Positions 5,172 to 19,464 of a stretch of DNA of 64,000 bases are shown in pieces. Numbering within the stretch: the first letter of the stretch is position 1; the number at the start of each line of letters is the position of its first letter. Below the pieces are notes generated by a model that was given only the letters and a program-made list of their open reading frames with translations, ran no database searches and had not been told where the DNA came from. The stretch lies in the sequence record PX104378.1. One strand, 5' to 3'. The stretch comes from a phage. The position numbers were made by a program, and so were the translations under genes.

Positions 5172-7940
5172 ATGGCAGATTTAAGCAGAATCCAATTTAA
5201 ACGCACTAGCACTAAAGGTCGTCGACCTGATGCTGGTACGATGAATCCGGGTGAGTTGGCGATCAACTTAGCCGACCAATATTTGCTTACTAAAAACGAC
5301 TCAGGTGCTATTATCAATTTAAGTTGTCCTCCGGTGTATGACCGCGATGTTACAATGGCTGGTAAAGTTAAAGGTAATAATTATATCTTAAGTAAAACCG
5401 CTAACTATCTGGAAGATCAGACAGCGCGAGATCTTAACTACTTTGGTGCTTTCCGTACCAATGGTCTTGATGGTTTTCTAGAACTAACGCTAAACGTTCC
5501 TCATTCTTCTGGTGTTCAGCATGGTCGAGGATTTACTTTCCAGTATGGTCACACTGGATCGCGAGTAGAAACCTATGGCTATAATAGAGAAGGTCAAAAA
5601 GCATTCAGCTATAAAATGTATCACGAAGGTGATAAACCAACTCCAGGAGAATTGAACGTTTATAGCAAACAAGAAGTAGATAGAATGTTTGTTAAGAACG
5701 TTAAACTTGCTACAGTTCCTGGTGATACAGTTGAAGGCTATTTTAAATTAGCAACTGCAATGATTCCACAAAATGGTCGTAGTGTATTTTTCCGTATTCA
5801 TGGTGGTAACGGATATAACGTTACTGCATACGATCAAGTTGATATTGTAGAAATTGTTATTCGCAGTGGAAATAATCGCCCTAAAGGTGTTAACGTTATT
5901 GCATATCGCCGAAATACAAACAAATCATTTGATGTTTTGGCTGTTAATACTTCTGGTGATAACTATGATATCTATGTGAAATATCAGCGTTACACTGATA
6001 ACGTTATTGTTGAATTTGGTAAAAGTGTTGATGTTAATCTGGTAGTTCATGACGTTCCAGATTTTGTTGCTGAACGTCCTGCTGGTGATAATGTTATTGG
6101 CGGTCGCGCGGTAACTCTTTTCAACACCGAAAATAAACGTGGTGTGTTGAGTTTTGACGATAACACACAAAATAGCTATGATATTGTTCACTTGAGTAAT
6201 GATAAAGGTACTGGACGAAAATATATTCGTAAATTCCGTAGCAACTATAATGAAATGATCTGGCATGAGACTGTTCAAGGTTCCAGTTATCGTCTGGCTA
6301 CTGGTAGCACTGATGCTCAGGAAATTATGACTATTGAATCTAGTAGCTCAATTGCTGGAACTCATAAAGGTAATATTATTTCTGGTCGTATGCTGTTAAA
6401 TGGCGGATCTAATGCCATTACACTACGCCGACCTGCTGGTCAATCTAATCATATTGCGTTTCAAGATAATCGTACTGGAGATATTACCCGTCAAGGATGG
6501 ATCGGTTATGCAAACGCCGATACTGACGTTTTTGAATGGTATAGTGATGTAGGTGGCAGTTCTATTCGTCAACATATCGACGGACAGATCGAATTTCAGA
6601 CAGGTAACATGAAGCGAGTTTATACCAACGGTCAATTCATTTCTTTATATGCTGATGGCTTCCGTACTGTATATGGTAACTATGGATCATGGTGGCGAAA
6701 TGACGGTAGTAACGTTTATCTGATGAGCACAAAATCAGGCGACGCTATGGGTCCGTGGAATACCTTTAGGCCGTTCATATACAGTCTCGCCAATGGAAAC
6801 GTTACTCTAGGTGGTAGCGATGCTGGCAATCATTTAATGCGTCTCAATAATGAAAATCGTCAAGTAGAAATAAATGCAACAACACATTTAGGGTCTCGAT
6901 TATATTGGGAACGTAGCGAAGGATCGGCATCTAGATTTTTTATTAAGAATTGGGGTAATGGAACTTCTCGCGCTCAAGTGTGGGAACTTGCTGACGAGAC
7001 AGGTTATCATGTATATTCTCAGCGAAACGACGCGGGTGTTCTTCAATTCCGTACTGCTGGTAATTTTGAGACTGGTGGTGATGCTCAAGTAAACGGGACT
7101 TTACGTGTCACCAATGTTCTTCGAACAGATAACCAAATTCAGATTTATCGCGATAACAACAAAGAACTCTGGTTTAAGGATGCTAATGGTACTAACCGTG
7201 GTGTTATCTGGGGTGATAGCACAGGTCAAATGCGCATTCGAAACTATAACAGCGGAGAATTTGACCATGTTTTCCAGACTGGTATGATTCGCTTAGAACG
7301 TGGGTATGCAAACGGTAGCGACCGTGGTTTGATTCGCGGAGAAGTACAAGGTGGTGCTTGGTCAGAATGGAAAACTCGCGCTGCTGGCTTATTGGTTGAC
7401 TGTCCAGCTGCTCAAACTTCCGCATATAACGTATGGAAAGCGACCAAATGGGGTTTAGACCACATCGCGGCAATGGGCGTTCATGTTCCTAGTGGTGTTA
7501 TTACTAATGCTATGGCACGTCTTCATATTCATACCACAAACTTTGACTTTAACGCATCTGGTGATTTCCAAGCTGGTCGCAATGGTAACTTTAACGATGT
7601 TTACATTCGCTCTGATGCTCGCCTGAAAATCAATAAGGAAGAGTATAAGGAGAATGCCACCGATAAAGTTAATCGCTTGACGGTATACACCTATGACAAG
7701 GTTAAATCTTTAACCGACCGTACTGTCATTGCTCATGAAGTCGGTATTATTGCTCAGGATCTTGAAAAAGAATTGCCGGAAGCAGTAACAACTTCTAAGG
7801 TCGGCGATCCTGATAAGCCAGAAGAGATCTTAACAATTTCTAACTCTGCTGTCAACGCTCTTTTAATTAAGGCGTTTCAGGAAATGAGCGAAGAATTGAA
7901 AGTCGTTAAAGCTGAACTAGCGGAACTTAAAAAGAATTAA
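5172..7940 (+). CDS. 37: Distal long tail fibre gp37 with C-terminal intramolecular chaperone (S74-type) domain
   Basis: N-terminus MADLSRIQFKR..GELAINL matches T4 gp37; C-terminal ~110 aa carry the SDxxxK autoproteolysis motif (YIRSDARLKINKEEY) typical of endosialidase/T5 pb1 chaperone domains. Confidence 0.8.
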   Translation: MADLSRIQFKRTSTKGRRPDAGTMNPGELAINLADQYLLTKNDSGAIINLSCPPVYDRDVTMAGKVKGNNYILSKTANYLEDQTARDLNYFGAFRTNGLDGFLELTLNVPHSSGVQHGRGFTFQYGHTGSRVETYGYNREGQKAFSYKMYHEGDKPTPGELNVYSKQEVDRMFVKNVKLATVPGDTVEGYFKLATAMIPQNGRSVFFRIHGGNGYNVTAYDQVDIVEIVIRSGNNRPKGVNVIAYRRNTNKSFDVLAVNTSGDNYDIYVKYQRYTDNVIVEFGKSVDVNLVVHDVPDFVAERPAGDNVIGGRAVTLFNTENKRGVLSFDDNTQNSYDIVHLSNDKGTGRKYIRKFRSNYNEMIWHETVQGSSYRLATGSTDAQEIMTIESSSSIAGTHKGNIISGRMLLNGGSNAITLRRPAGQSNHIAFQDNRTGDITRQGWIGYANADTDVFEWYSDVGGSSIRQHIDGQIEFQTGNMKRVYTNGQFISLYADGFRTVYGNYGSWWRNDGSNVYLMSTKSGDAMGPWNTFRPFIYSLANGNVTLGGSDAGNHLMRLNNENRQVEINATTHLGSRLYWERSEGSASRFFIKNWGNGTSRAQVWELADETGYHVYSQRNDAGVLQFRTAGNFETGGDAQVNGTLRVTNVLRTDNQIQIYRDNNKELWFKDANGTNRGVIWGDSTGQMRIRNYNSGEFDHVFQTGMIRLERGYANGSDRGLIRGEVQGGAWSEWKTRAAGLLVDCPAAQTSAYNVWKATKWGLDHIAAMGVHVPSGVITNAMARLHIHTTNFDFNASGDFQAGRNGNFNDVYIRSDARLKINKEEYKENATDKVNRLTVYTYDKVKSLTDRTVIAHEVGIIAQDLEKELPEAVTTSKVGDPDKPEEILTISNSAVNALLIKAFQEMSEELKVVKAELAELKKN

Positions 7941-9529: not shown

Positions 9530-9862
9530 TTACAGATGAAAACCTGTTACGATCACCGCATCGATCGTACCGCTAGGAATAAACGGTTCGCCCTCTTTTA
9601 TTTCAACTTTGAATTGATGCCATTTCGCTAATACTTCTTCCGGTACACCCAGCGATTCGGCGTCTGCTTTAGTTTCATCCATAATCCAACTAGGCTGCAT
9701 GAGAGCATAGTTTACATAGTCCATTTCTGGTGTCATGTCATCAATGTTAATATATTTGCAGTTGACGCGTTTCAGAATTTCAAATTCTTTATTGTCAACC
9801 TGTACCATGTATAATTCAGTAGTTTCTGGAATCAGTTCCCACACAATCAGTACATTTTTCAT
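9530..9862 (-). CDS. Hypothetical protein
   Basis: 110-aa ORF; ATG start preceded by GAGGTGA. Confidence 0.5.
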   Translation of the reverse strand: MKNVLIVWELIPETTELYMVQVDNKEFEILKRVNCKYINIDDMTPEMDYVNYALMQPSWIMDETKADAESLGVPEEVLAKWHQFKVEIKEGEPFIPSGTIDAVIVTGFHL

Positions 9863-9870
9863 AGTTCACC

Positions 9871-10239
9871 TCACTTAACAAAGATTTTCTTTAATGCTTT
9901 CAGGATCGTTGCTTCCGGCGCTTCTTCCGGTGGAGGAAGCAATTCTACCACTTCCTCTTCCAACTCGATATAGTCTACCAGATATTCTACATAGAATGCA
10001 AGTGCTTCCATGAAATTAGATGCTACATCCGATTCACCACAAGCTCCTACATGCATTGTATAAACATCACTGCGATCAAGTTTGTGGATGCTTCCCAGAT
10101 AGTTTCGGTTATACCAGACTTCCCACACTTTCAGCTTTCCGGTTTTGGTTGCTGTTTTATAATCGGTTTCGTAATGATGCAATTGACGTTGCAAATCATT
10201 GATAATAACACATTTTTCGTAATTGCTTTGAATTTCCAT
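9871..10239 (-). CDS. Hypothetical protein
   Basis: 122-aa ORF, acidic C-terminus; RBS GAGGATTA. Confidence 0.5.
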   Translation of the reverse strand: MEIQSNYEKCVIINDLQRQLHHYETDYKTATKTGKLKVWEVWYNRNYLGSIHKLDRSDVYTMHVGACGESDVASNFMEALAFYVEYLVDYIELEEEVVELLPPPEEAPEATILKALKKIFVK

Positions 10240-16157: not shown

Positions 16158-17150
16158 TTAGTAATGGCTAAAACCTTCGGTTACATCTTCAACCACATAG
16201 TAACGATGACAGCGCATTTTGGCATTCGCATAATCTTTCGGGATACTTACAACGTGACGCGGATCAACTTTGCATTTAATGATTCGGCCTCGCCCACCGC
16301 CATAGTGCGGAATATAGTGTTTCGCTGCAACGTGGAGGCCATTAGAGCAAGTGCGATCATCATCTGGGTCCACGTCTTTACGTTTCATTTTAACCGTGCG
16401 CCCTGGGCTATTATCAAACGTATGCGTAAAGAAATCTTTATAATCAACATCAACACGTTTCCATGCATAGAAACAACCATCTTCCCCGATCTCAATGTCG
16501 TTGTGCTCTAAGAAGTCAAACAGACGATCTACCGCCTTACGGCTAGGATTCTTCTTGCACTTCTCAAAGAAGTTCAGATAGTGCGTATATGGCTTATTCT
16601 CTTTAATCGACTCCACAACTCGACGAGTCAGATTATTATCAAGAACAATATTATGATAATACACAATGCCATTTTCGATACGGAAAGCGCCGTGATAATA
16701 TACTTCAACCGCTTTCTTAATGTCAATCAGCGTAATAGCTTTGATGAAATCATTCTGTTTAATCGCTTCCAGTGCTTCATTAAAGTTAACATGTGATGGA
16801 TCAGCAGTATAAACAATGTCACCACATGTAATAGTAATGAATTTAGATGAGGCTATTGCTACGATTTTTGAGGAAGTAGTTACGGGCTTTTTTGCGCGTT
16901 CACCGCCTTTTCCTTTACTGGTTTTACGGCGTGCTTTACGTTTTTCTAGTGCCTTGCGACCTTCCGCTACTGCGTCTTTCTGAATCAGTAATACACGGGA
17001 GGCAGTGCGACGAGATACACCAAATGCTGCCGCAAGTGCTTCGCGGGTAGTAAACTTACCTTCACCCCACTGTTTAGCCAGTTTGATTTGTTTTGCAGAG
17101 TCCAGACATTGAACGTTACGGTCAGAGACGGTGATTTTTGCTTTAGTCAT
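16158..17150 (-). CDS. rIIB: rIIB protein
   Basis: C-terminal half closely matches T4 rIIB (AVDRLFDFL..DIEI.EDG.FYAWK; TFDNSPG; CSNGLHV; VVSIP.DY.NAKMR; YVVEDVTE); start taken at second ATG (MTKAK) with better RBS spacing. Confidence 0.9.
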   Translation of the reverse strand: MTKAKITVSDRNVQCLDSAKQIKLAKQWGEGKFTTREALAAAFGVSRRTASRVLLIQKDAVAEGRKALEKRKARRKTSKGKGGERAKKPVTTSSKIVAIASSKFITITCGDIVYTADPSHVNFNEALEAIKQNDFIKAITLIDIKKAVEVYYHGAFRIENGIVYYHNIVLDNNLTRRVVESIKENKPYTHYLNFFEKCKKNPSRKAVDRLFDFLEHNDIEIGEDGCFYAWKRVDVDYKDFFTHTFDNSPGRTVKMKRKDVDPDDDRTCSNGLHVAAKHYIPHYGGGRGRIIKCKVDPRHVVSIPKDYANAKMRCHRYYVVEDVTEGFSHY

Positions 17151-17212
17151 ATTATTCATTCCTCTATTAGTTGGGCGACTCTCGCCGCCCGATTCACATC
17201 ATTATACCAGAA

Positions 17213-17344
17213 TTATTTTGCTTCTACAACCTTGCGGATTGTGCGGTCTGATACATTATAGATTCGTGCCAGTTCGCCTTTAGTCAAGCCGCGAGCGTAT
17301 TGTTTACGGATGGTTTCTTTCTGGATAGCGGTCAGTTTAGTCAT
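17213..17344 (-). CDS. 43-aa stand-alone HTH protein resembling the rIIB N-terminus
   Basis: Not in ORF track (<60 aa). ATG preceded by GAGGTGA; MTKLTAIQKETIRKQYARGLTKGELARIYNVSDRTIRKVVEAK; similar to the rIIB N-terminal HTH segment. Confidence 0.5.
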   Translation of the reverse strand: MTKLTAIQKETIRKQYARGLTKGELARIYNVSDRTIRKVVEAK

Positions 17345-17355
17345 AATATCACCTC

Positions 17356-19464
17356 TTAAAATTTAACATTCTTAACCAGTTTCATAAAGTCTTGTGCGCG
17401 TTTGTCGTTATGCAGAATACGATACCAGTTATCTACAATATCATACAGTAACGGGCTATTCTCTTTAAACTTCGCACAAACTGCTTTAATTCGTTCGTTT
17501 GCTGCCGTGAATTTTTCATCACAAATCTTTTTAGTTTCTTCGTCCATAATCCAACGAGTACGAAGGAGTAACTTGGAAACCTCTTTATTATAATGACGAC
17601 CGTACAGTCTGTCAATAAATTCTGGAATACAGCGTTCTAATTCATCGTCATGAAACAACATAGTGATCACACCCAGATATTCGCCATACCCCAGATGATT
17701 GGTCTTAACCTTCTTAGCCAGACCAGCCAGCTTACCGCGAACAAATTCTAGCGCACATTCCAATTGTTCGTCAACGAGATATTTTTGTGTCTCATTACGG
17801 GTAATAATATACTTTGTTACCCCGAAGTAGTCAAGCGCTGTGTGTAATGTATTTTCACTATAGATCGATTGACGGCTACGGCTTTCGAATGCATCACCCA
17901 CGCGGAACATGTGCAAGCCTGATAACTCGCGAATCTCTGCCGCTTTCATGTGATGGCTGGTTTTATGCCAACTGTCACCAATCTTTTCCATGATATACAC
18001 GTTAGGCAGCTTAGGAGTAGCTTCACGCTGTACACGTTCGGCCTTCTCCGGCTTAACTGCTTTAGCACGCAGATCATCGGCCTCGGACACTTTAATCACG
18101 GTCATTTCCGATTCATCATAATACTGTTTGATGTACTCGAAAGTCTCCATATGTTTTTCGTTTCTCTGACGGAACACCAGTACCTTTTTATTGATGCCGT
18201 ATTCTTGGACCATGCCGTTAAGAGTCAGTGCACGTAGTTTCGGTTTATCGGTATCATCAATTACACACAGAATATCTTCTTTATGCATCCATACAAAATG
18301 CGTAATGTTGTATTGACTGCTAACGAAAGCAGGGCGCAATTTACTGATTGTGTGACGAGTACGATACAGAGTATACACCTGTCCTTCTACGTCATTTGGC
18401 GAATCTTTACCCGCATTCACAAACTTATTATAGATTGCTACCGGATCATCCCACTGTCCGATCTTACCCATTTTGCTAATAATATTGCGTTGAGTCGATG
18501 AATACTCGCTCATAAATTGCGCAAGTTTACGCTCTGTTTCAATGCTGGCGATCTTTTCTTTAACCTTTTCCAACATCATTTCATTGATTTCTGCAATGCG
18601 TTTTTCGATGTTCGCTTTAGTCTCAATTGACAAGTGAACTTCTTCACGCGATGGCATCAGGTCCAGATCACCTAACTCGAAATTGATGTAAATGGTCTGG
18701 TGCTGGCGGTTTACAGCTTCTAACCATGTTCCGCGAACATATTCATACGGGATCGGATACTGGATCTTACCCATGATTGCATATACCACATAGGAATCGT
18801 TATCACGTCCATTACACACATAATAATTATCAAAGCTAGGGAAATAATTAATTTCGATGGCATTGATATTAGGTTTGTGTTCCCCAAAATGACGCAGTAC
18901 AAATTGTGCTTCTCGATGCCATGTCTGAATATCTTTTTCCTTCACCGGAATAGTGATTTTCAGACCGTTGTCTTCATAGGTCGGTTCGTCGAAAATCTGC
19001 ACCATTTTCGGCATAGAGTTTTGCACGAATGCAGTAAAGCCATAAGCGCGACCATTGTAGTAGTTTACGATTGTAAAGGTGTCGGTGTAGCTATAAGCAG
19101 ATTTCGCACCTAAACCAAAAGATCCGATATAATCATTAGTCTGGTCTTTGGTTGATTCAAAGTAAACAGTAAACAGTTGTTCTAATTCTTTCTTAGACGG
19201 AATACCCGTACCATAATCACGCACAGAGAAATACGGTTCGATTGCAGTCGGTAAATGAATATCAAACGGACGATCTAAGGTTCCGGCTTCTTTGTGAGTG
19301 TCGGTAGCATTACATGAATACTCACGGACGCAAGCACGCTCACAATATTGATAAGTGTTCTTAGAAAGCACCATAAAAGCCTTGCTACTTGCTTTCAGAG
19401 AAAAATCAACCGCACCGCTCAGGTCACTACCAAATACTTCTTCATTATCAATATGCATTTTCAT
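17356..19464 (-). CDS. rIIA: rIIA protein
   Basis: 702 aa (T4 725 aa); GHKL-ATPase-like N-terminal blocks (YIGSFGLGAKSAYSYTDTFTIVNYY), ..DYFP.FD.YY.., PSREE; GAGGATTATATT-ATG. Confidence 0.9.
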   Translation of the reverse strand: MKMHIDNEEVFGSDLSGAVDFSLKASSKAFMVLSKNTYQYCERACVREYSCNATDTHKEAGTLDRPFDIHLPTAIEPYFSVRDYGTGIPSKKELEQLFTVYFESTKDQTNDYIGSFGLGAKSAYSYTDTFTIVNYYNGRAYGFTAFVQNSMPKMVQIFDEPTYEDNGLKITIPVKEKDIQTWHREAQFVLRHFGEHKPNINAIEINYFPSFDNYYVCNGRDNDSYVVYAIMGKIQYPIPYEYVRGTWLEAVNRQHQTIYINFELGDLDLMPSREEVHLSIETKANIEKRIAEINEMMLEKVKEKIASIETERKLAQFMSEYSSTQRNIISKMGKIGQWDDPVAIYNKFVNAGKDSPNDVEGQVYTLYRTRHTISKLRPAFVSSQYNITHFVWMHKEDILCVIDDTDKPKLRALTLNGMVQEYGINKKVLVFRQRNEKHMETFEYIKQYYDESEMTVIKVSEADDLRAKAVKPEKAERVQREATPKLPNVYIMEKIGDSWHKTSHHMKAAEIRELSGLHMFRVGDAFESRSRQSIYSENTLHTALDYFGVTKYIITRNETQKYLVDEQLECALEFVRGKLAGLAKKVKTNHLGYGEYLGVITMLFHDDELERCIPEFIDRLYGRHYNKEVSKLLLRTRWIMDEETKKICDEKFTAANERIKAVCAKFKENSPLLYDIVDNWYRILHNDKRAQDFMKLVKNVKF

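Follow-up and report, generated by a model that had tools for sequence, protein, structure and literature searches.

The genes rIIA and rIIB are among the most famous in genetics, and their molecular mechanism is still obscure. In T4, rIIB has an internal promoter, its ATG lies 11 nucleotides (nt) past the rIIA stop codon, and the protein begins with a module (residues ~5 to 45) that falls within the classical "B1 segment." This segment is reportedly dispensable on K(lambda), as the r1589 fusion of Champe and Benzer is said to have indicated, and Crick et al. are said to have found frameshift windows tolerated, which would fit a separable module; our literature search on r1589 and the dispensability of the B1 segment returned nothing usable. 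Here, we consider a 64,000-nt stretch of phage DNA from record PX104378.1 (the window, in whose full length all coordinates are counted), where an open reading frame (ORF) of 43 codons lies between rIIA and rIIB on the minus strand, at 17213 to 17344. We conclude that this ORF is a real gene. Its product is predicted to be a free-standing helix-turn-helix (HTH) protein related to the N-terminal module of rIIB.

Three other bodies of work bear on this locus. In RB49 and phi1, promoter-early stem-loop (PeSL) elements combine a strong sigma-70-like promoter with a stem-loop that attenuates upstream transcription, and they are recombination hot spots (Arbiol et al. 2010, PMC2839356). PeSL-like sequences also occur between the split g43A and g43B cistrons of Aeromonas phages, and the same authors speculated that PeSL stem-loops are the targets of an unidentified DNA-binding protein (PMC2839356). 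Homing endonucleases, for their part, commonly insert between conserved T4 genes (PMC2988022). Finally, rIIB counters RexAB and triggers the bacterial gasdermin/CARD defense (PMC10312443).

The small ORF runs from an ATG at 17344-17342 to a stop codon at 17215-17213 and encodes a protein of 5.0 kDa with the sequence MTKLTAIQKETIRKQYARGLTKGELARIYNVSDRTIRKVVEAK. It starts 11 nt past the rIIA stop codon (TAA, 17358-17356), and the spacer between the two (17345-17355) holds its Shine-Dalgarno sequence, GAGGTGA (17349 to 17355, minus strand). An earlier reading of the window, made from the sequence only, had reported a 43-amino-acid (aa) ORF with a good ribosome-binding site in the gap between rIIA and rIIB, and was right about the ORF, its ribosome-binding site, and its neighbors. 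The window comes from a Krischvirus (RB49-like Straboviridae; a coliphage), and the 3.4 kb around the small ORF are 97 to 98.5% identical to 59 phage records, including RB49, Phi1, GEC-3S, and kaaroe. Every one of the 59 Krischvirus records matching at this locus has an intact small ORF; identity of the protein is 99% or higher in 54 and 95 to 99% in the remaining 5. In these genomes it carries only the label "hypothetical protein," and the family to which it belongs, phrog_15481 (E 3e-34), has no assigned function. A literature search for any description of the small ORF returned nothing usable.

Conservation extends beyond the genus. Among 5.8 billion protein clusters, we found homologues of 43 aa that are 69 to 98% identical. 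Their contigs, together with those carrying the closest rIIB homologues, reveal four uncultured lineages (L002, L003, L005/L006, and L007) in which rIIA is followed by a small ORF of 43 to 45 aa and then by rIIB. All relatives that we examined, the 59 Krischvirus records and the four uncultured lineages, thus have the ORF intact. A scan of IMG/VR with the small-ORF alignment returned two Krischvirus contigs and one unrelated 100-aa HTH protein, and no new lineages. Between lineages, the proportion of differing sites is 0.48 to 0.86 at synonymous positions, which is near saturation, versus 0.07 to 0.24 at nonsynonymous positions, and the ratio of nonsynonymous to synonymous rates (dN/dS), where computable, is 0.03 to 0.33 over the whole ORF and not just over its promoter-bearing end. 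The small protein is the most constrained of the rII operon, because its cross-lineage identity is 71 to 86%, versus 39 to 44% for rIIA and 54 to 65% for rIIB. Residues 21 to 41, which cover helix 2, the turn, and helix 3, are near-invariant across lineages, with conservative variation at residues 28 and 38. The Shine-Dalgarno sequence is strong in each of the five lineages, and the spacer that separates the ORF from rIIA is 4 to 16 nt long in the lineages other than Krischvirus.

The protein is predicted to fold as a tri-helical HTH. In the AlphaFold2 model (mean predicted local distance difference test score [pLDDT], 90.7), three helices occupy residues 6 to 18, 22 to 28, and 33 to 41. The Foldseek matches to this model are DNA-bound HTH domains, namely, the N-terminal HTH of IS21 IstA (TM-score, 0.79; root mean square deviation, 1.0 Å), gamma-delta resolvase, CENP-B, and domains of the NarL/LuxR type. 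TM-scores to such DNA-binding domains are 0.7 to 0.8, with E-values that are not significant because the domain is so small; a search of PDB sequences found no relative. The protein has 11 Lys/Arg and 4 Asp/Glu residues, a net charge of +7, and a pI of 10.4. From the fold class, the charge and pI, and the near-invariance of helices 2 and 3, we infer that it binds DNA, probably through helix 3 (SDRTIRKVV).

The sequence-only reading had also claimed that the small ORF parallels the N-terminal HTH-like segment of rIIB, both in this phage and in T4. We compared it with a hidden Markov model (HMM) built on residues 1 to 60 of 116 rIIB homologues from other lineages, with the Krischvirus-like clade excluded; these homologues were found with the whole rIIB protein and so were not selected for likeness to the small ORF. 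Among the 1,013 stop-to-stop segments of the window, the small ORF scores 48.3 bits (E 3e-14), and the alignment is collinear, with residues 2 to 41 on profile positions 4 to 43. All eight small-ORF sequences, those of the relatives included, score 44 to 54 bits. The N terminus of the window's own rIIB scores 26.5 bits, and no other segment scores above 7 bits, so the 64-kb window holds no further HTH of this kind. Pairwise searches agree in part. BLASTP aligns the small ORF to residues 7 to 45 of T4 rIIB at 41% identity (E 5e-4) and to the rIIB of a Klebsiella phage at 53% identity (E 1e-8). In a tblastn search of 50,697 phage genomes, most non-Krischvirus matches came from phages of Klebsiella and related enterobacteria; the best of those among the matches listed are the 5' ends of Klebsiella-phage rIIB genes (E 0.04 to 0.08; 48 to 52% identity), and weaker matches fall in the rIIB of Serratia, Enterobacter, and Erwinia phages and of CC31. 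Judged by the profile, the likeness to rIIB N termini is real and far beyond chance.

Curated libraries, by comparison, reach best scores of 26 bits for Pfam CENP-B_N, 26 bits for a PHROG family other than its own, and 21 bits in NCBIfam, which gave nothing specific. Only CENP-B_N (PF04218; 26.0 bits versus a gathering cutoff of 21.2) exceeds its threshold, all other HTH families falling below theirs, and that match says no more than "tri-helical DNA-binding HTH." The likeness to the T4-type module is also one of position. The pattern L-x2-Q-K-x2-I...Y..G.T..ELA..y.VS.rTIrrV is common to the two, and the ATG of the small ORF holds the place that the ATG of rIIB holds in T4, with a spacer of 11 nt from the rIIA stop codon in both. 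In contrast to T4 rIIB, the small ORF ends in its own stop codon, without the rIIB linker and C-terminal domain, and the rIIB downstream bears a second, divergent HTH.

The claimed parallel with the rIIB of the same phage is weak. BLASTP found no match between the two, so that only profiles bring out their likeness; on one made from the attached HTH of the Krischvirus type, the small ORF scores ~11 bits. As measured on the rIIB profile, the free copy is closer to the canonical rIIB N terminus than is the copy carried by this phage's rIIB. The attached HTH of Krischvirus (16986-17117) is an outlier, at 26.5 bits when other rIIBs have a median of 76 bits; the recognition helix reads RRTASRVL where RTI(G/R)RV is usual, and it is preceded by an N-terminal extension of ~10 residues (MTKAKITVSDR).

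How the free copy arose is best approached through relatives in which the same module has multiplied. The rIIB of lineage L002 (P0009; 459 aa; L002 4685-6064) has three tandem N-terminal HTH modules, at residues 1 to 43, 56 to 112, and 144 to 196, which score 53, 46, and 41 bits on the rIIB N-terminal HMM, and the free 43-aa gene is present upstream as well. Among 120 rIIB homologues, 116 have one module, 3 have two or three, and 1 truncated sequence has none; the rIIB of Aeromonas phage phiAS5 (P0086) has three and P0097 has two, and a 775-aa rIIB-like protein (P0186) also has two. Module multiplication at the rIIB 5' end is therefore recurrent. These proteins and the locus studied here share the same module, multiplied at the same place; the difference is that the extra copies lie in frame within rIIB, whereas the present locus and that of L002 each have one copy as a cistron of its own. 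In the next-nearest rIIB lineages (P0010, P0011, and P0090), rIIB comes directly after rIIA with no gene between, and the free gene is thus a feature of the Krischvirus-like clade.

We hold it probable that the small ORF arose by duplication of the rIIB module, an origin favored by context though not proven by sequence. In the lineage ancestral to the Krischvirus-like clade, a tandem duplication would have taken in the 5' end of rIIB with its Shine-Dalgarno sequence, its start codon, and the HTH. Copy 1 would have run into a stop codon, giving a short ORF that kept its coupling to the rIIA stop, and copy 2 would have stayed at the head of the complete rIIB. A PeSL now lies between the copies; copy 1 would have kept the canonical sequence under very strong constraint, while the copy attached to rIIB diverged. 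Several considerations favor this origin. The rIIB set is small and unselected and still reaches 38 bits, and its profile gives the small ORFs 44 to 54 bits; rIIB N termini, not endonucleases, are the nearest relatives among the matches listed from cultured phage genomes; the small ORF begins precisely at the site of the ancestral rIIB start; no remnant of a nuclease is seen, and the gene is fixed, not patchy; and the sister lineage L002 shows the module duplicating in place. The sequence-only reading had offered two origins, a partial duplication or a domain split. A pure domain split does not fit, as rIIB retains its own HTH at residues 12 to 55. The most economical origin is a partial duplication of the module at the 5' end of rIIB. 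It fits the tandem HTH multiplication in the L002 rIIB and the presence of an rIIB-type HTH at the T4 rIIB start position; it is unproven, as HTHs of endonucleases are as close or closer.

A number of observations weigh against this origin, some of them from an exhaustive profile search with the small-ORF alignment against 1.84 billion representative proteins (304 matches at E ≤ 1e-3). The free copy resembles the rIIB N termini of other genera more than it does its own neighbor, with which it shares 12 of 43 residues (28%), and no sign of a recent duplication is left in either the DNA or the protein. On the rIIB profile, the small ORFs score around the lowest tenth of genuine rIIB N termini (median, 76 bits; 10th percentile, 52 bits). 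When the matches of the exhaustive search are ranked by their best single module, 16 non-rIIB entries beat the best rIIB N terminus (38.6 bits), one of them being a 32-aa fragment of the small-ORF family itself (P0159). The top single modules (49 and 47 bits) are the C-terminal HTHs of NUMOD4+HNH_3 homing endonucleases, and a GIY-YIG enzyme is also present. BLASTP aligns the small ORF to the first of these, P0144 (49 bits), at 55% identity and 80% positives (E 5e-13). A neighbor-joining tree of 97 modules over 45 columns, which is poorly separated, groups the small ORFs with the endonuclease modules, themselves preselected for likeness; because of the poor separation and the biased outgroups, we did not use phylogeny to judge the origin.

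Other features of the same search deserve mention. The top of the list consists mainly of proteins with 4 to 8 tandem HTH modules, whose scores are summed, along with single-module proteins, and the rIIB C-terminal domain is present in 1 of 149 matches. The tandem proteins (P0126 to P0143 and others) are uncharacterized, with copies of the same HTH type and without the rIIB C-terminal domain; one such cluster is named "YlxM (UPF0122) family" by its source. P0159 begins exactly like the small ORF (MTKLTAIQKETIR) and then departs from it (FHFSRGLTKCDVSRMYNFS); truncation or a frameshift at the end of a contig may explain this variant. The contig of P0144 (L017) carries two NUMOD4+HNH_3 genes, at 6001-6543 and 9568-10104, one after a primase gene and the other between a Pif1-type helicase gene and the second fragment of a Pol III alpha gene.

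The most serious alternative is that the small ORF descends from a homing endonuclease, of which it would be a domesticated relic, or from some other imported HTH cassette that settled between rIIA and rIIB. The former gene would have been a free-standing HNH or GIY-YIG endonuclease that lost its nuclease and kept its C-terminal HTH, and the likeness to rIIB would reflect a shared HTH class and not descent. The similarity to the HNH_3/NUMOD4 and GIY-YIG modules (P0144; also P0162, P0220, P0228, and P0195), the closest single modules among the 1.84 billion proteins and, in P0144, the highest pairwise similarity found anywhere, speaks for this alternative, as do weak matches to PHROG endonuclease families. 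The motif K-L-T...Q..IR..Y..G...ELA..YNVS..TI is common to the small ORF and these modules, and the K-L-T with which the ORF begins is typical of them. The habit of homing endonucleases of inserting between conserved T4 genes and the PeSL recombination hot spot that flanks the small ORF would also suit such an origin. Scored on an HMM of the endonuclease type, rIIB N termini have a median of 29 bits; the reverse comparison, endonuclease modules against the rIIB N-terminal profile, gives a median of 28 bits, and by these cross-scores the two clearly belong to one HTH class. Comparison of sequences cannot by itself separate descent from an rIIB module from descent from an endonuclease-type module.

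We nevertheless consider the endonuclease origin unlikely. Unlike the endonuclease genes, the small ORF has no nuclease domain or remnant: it begins 11 nt past the rIIA stop codon, rIIA has its normal length, and Pfam finds HTH families only. The gene sits in the rII operon and is fixed in all 59 Krischvirus records and the four uncultured lineages, whereas mobile endonuclease genes are patchy. The endonuclease matches are extreme values from a vast pool, selected by the query, and P0144 comes from an unrelated phage, one that encodes DnaB and a split Pol III alpha. In cultured phage genomes, the best non-Krischvirus tblastn matches among those listed are in rIIB, and an HNH endonuclease appears only at E = 7. 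The unselected rIIB profile gives the small ORFs 44 to 54 bits and places the endonuclease modules far below them; the ~70 bits that the small ORFs score on the endonuclease-type HMM were set aside as a comparison, as the modules behind that HMM had been picked because they resemble the ORF. The window also holds no other HTH of this kind.

The setting of the small ORF suggests how it is expressed. A perfect sigma-70 promoter (TTGACA-17-TATAAT; 12 of 12 consensus matches) lies in the 3' part of rIIA at 17587 to 17615 (minus strand), 271 nt upstream of the small-ORF ATG, and near-consensus promoters occur ~220 to 400 nt (-223 to -403) upstream of the ORF in the four other lineages. This suggests a conserved promoter within rIIA that is predicted to serve the small ORF and rIIB. 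Downstream, a PeSL-type cassette fills 17173 to 17229 (minus strand) between the small ORF and rIIB and matches the published definition of a PeSL (PMC2839356). The -35 element of the rIIB promoter (TTGTAG, 17229-17224) lies inside the last codons of the small ORF and is followed by a TG-extended -10 element (TGgTATAAT, 17209-17201), both annotated at the same place in GEC-3S, and by a stem-loop (GGGCGGC-GAGA-GTCGCCC, 17190-17173) with a 7-bp G/C stem. Each of the five lineages has a hairpin between the small ORF and rIIB, and its G/C stem is 7 to 9 bp long and differs in sequence from lineage to lineage; the equivalent spacers are L002 4615-4684, L003 2705-2769, L005 3949-4000, and L007 1712-1789. 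The stem lies 3' of the -10 element in the window and in L002 and straddles it in L003 and L007. We rejected the hairpin as a canonical intrinsic terminator, as it has no U-tract, and read it instead as the PeSL stem-loop.

The spacer thus has the order described for a PeSL, namely, stop codon, sigma-70-like promoter, G(n)-loop-C(n) stem-loop, Shine-Dalgarno sequence, and ATG, and the split g43A/g43B of Aeromonas phages offers a precedent for a PeSL-like sequence between two cistrons of a split gene. The arrangement differs in that PeSLs typically stand on both sides of variable ORFans in hyperplastic regions; here, the cassette is only downstream, the upstream side is the 11-nt spacer with its Shine-Dalgarno sequence, and the ORF is fixed beside quasi-core genes. 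The small ORF is not joined to the rIIB linker or C-terminal domain, as its own stop codon, the promoter, and the hairpin come first. Read-through or a frameshift fusing it to rIIB was considered and rejected, as the frame offsets in the five lineages (2, 1, 2, 1, and 0) show none that is conserved and the promoter and hairpin intervene.

We propose that the small gene is transcribed early, together with rIIA and from the promoter inside the 3' end of rIIA, and that it is translated from a start 11 nt past the rIIA stop, so that the small protein would be made early alongside rIIA while rIIB would have an additional promoter of its own. The protein would then be a detached, separately dosed DNA-binding module of the rIIA/rIIB antidefense system that acts in trans, and the copy attached to rIIB (recognition helix, SRRTASRVL) may have diverged toward another specificity or a relaxed role. 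This account as a whole, an early rII-operon gene that originated by duplication and encodes a detached DNA-binding module, is the one toward which we lean, with modest confidence. The data show that the ORF is a gene under purifying selection and establish its fold class, family likeness, and synteny; the duplication, the binding of DNA, and a part in rII are inferred. Selection on how much rIIB is exposed or dosed is plausible, because rIIB counters RexAB and triggers the gasdermin/CARD defense; that such selection drove the split is speculative.

It is improbable, in our judgment, that the small protein is instead a stand-alone transcription regulator with no functional tie to rII, simply parked in its operon, whether as a repressor or activator of early (PeSL) promoters or as a stand-in for MotA, which Krischvirus lacks. 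Neither a motA ortholog nor a middle-promoter consensus could be identified in RB49 (PMC1524935), and the near-invariance of helix 2, the turn, and helix 3 is what a conserved DNA target would lead one to expect. Weak matches to Sigma70_r4, Mor, and late-activator families and the overlap of the small ORF with the -35 element of the rIIB promoter point the same way. However, all scores to regulator families are under the curated cutoffs, and the best family match is the rIIB N-terminal module. We examined the adjacent hairpin as an operator of the small HTH protein and rejected it, as this inverted repeat varies by lineage whereas the recognition helix is invariant, and reading of the five intergenic spacers, with no systematic motif search, revealed no DNA motif common to them.

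More of a long shot is a reading that joins both themes, with the detached HTH as the sequence-specific DNA-recognition subunit of rII or PeSL biology or as the missing MotA-type regulator's stand-in. Candidate targets may then be a conserved phage DNA element, such as the early-promoter or PeSL regions. Were this so, rIIB-type HTH modules would be DNA-targeting devices shared with homing endonucleases, and the small protein would open a first molecular route to finding what rIIB contacts inside the cell. Barely credible is the idea that the ORF is a nonfunctional leftover, either a pseudogene fragment or a chance ORF kept for the rIIB promoter in its DNA, since the selection data contradict it: very short, labeled a hypothetical protein everywhere, and holding the -35 element in its last codons as the ORF is, its length and frame are kept in five lineages, its dN/dS is low over the whole length with near-saturated synonymous sites, it is more conserved than rIIA or rIIB, and it has a strong Shine-Dalgarno sequence in every lineage.

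The locus amounts to a natural experiment in which an HTH module like that at the N terminus of rIIB is encoded on its own, as a protein of 5 kDa that is more strongly constrained than either rIIA or rIIB. Since the module is a separate protein, its target, whether a DNA site or a partner, can be probed alone, and its role can be separated genetically from that of the rIIB C-terminal domain. The locus also documents the plasticity of module copy number, with one to three fused copies and a free one, and a link in sequence between rIIB N termini and the DNA-binding domains of homing endonucleases. The module itself was already known as the N-terminal part of rIIB; what is new here is its form as a free-standing cistron. 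For annotation, phrog_15481, the Krischvirus "hypothetical protein" between rIIA and rIIB, can be named rIIB-N-type HTH protein.

On the minus strand, the order is rIIA, the 43-aa ORF, and rIIB. The upstream rIIA (17356 to 19464, minus strand; 702 aa) matches phrog_612 RIIA (E 3e-188) and is named rIIA in Krischvirus genomes that are 97 to 98% identical. The downstream rIIB (16158 to 17150, minus strand; phrog_609, E 1e-106) encodes 330 aa counted from an MTKAK start, with its own divergent N-terminal HTH (residues 12 to 55), a basic linker, and the rIIB C-terminal domain. The list of open reading frames puts the rIIB start at an ATG at 17159 (MNNMTKAK...), but the Shine-Dalgarno sequence AGAGGA (17165-17160) abuts that ATG. 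The start at 17150 (MTKAK) is the one annotated in the relatives kaaroe and GEC-3S and is probably the true start of rIIB.

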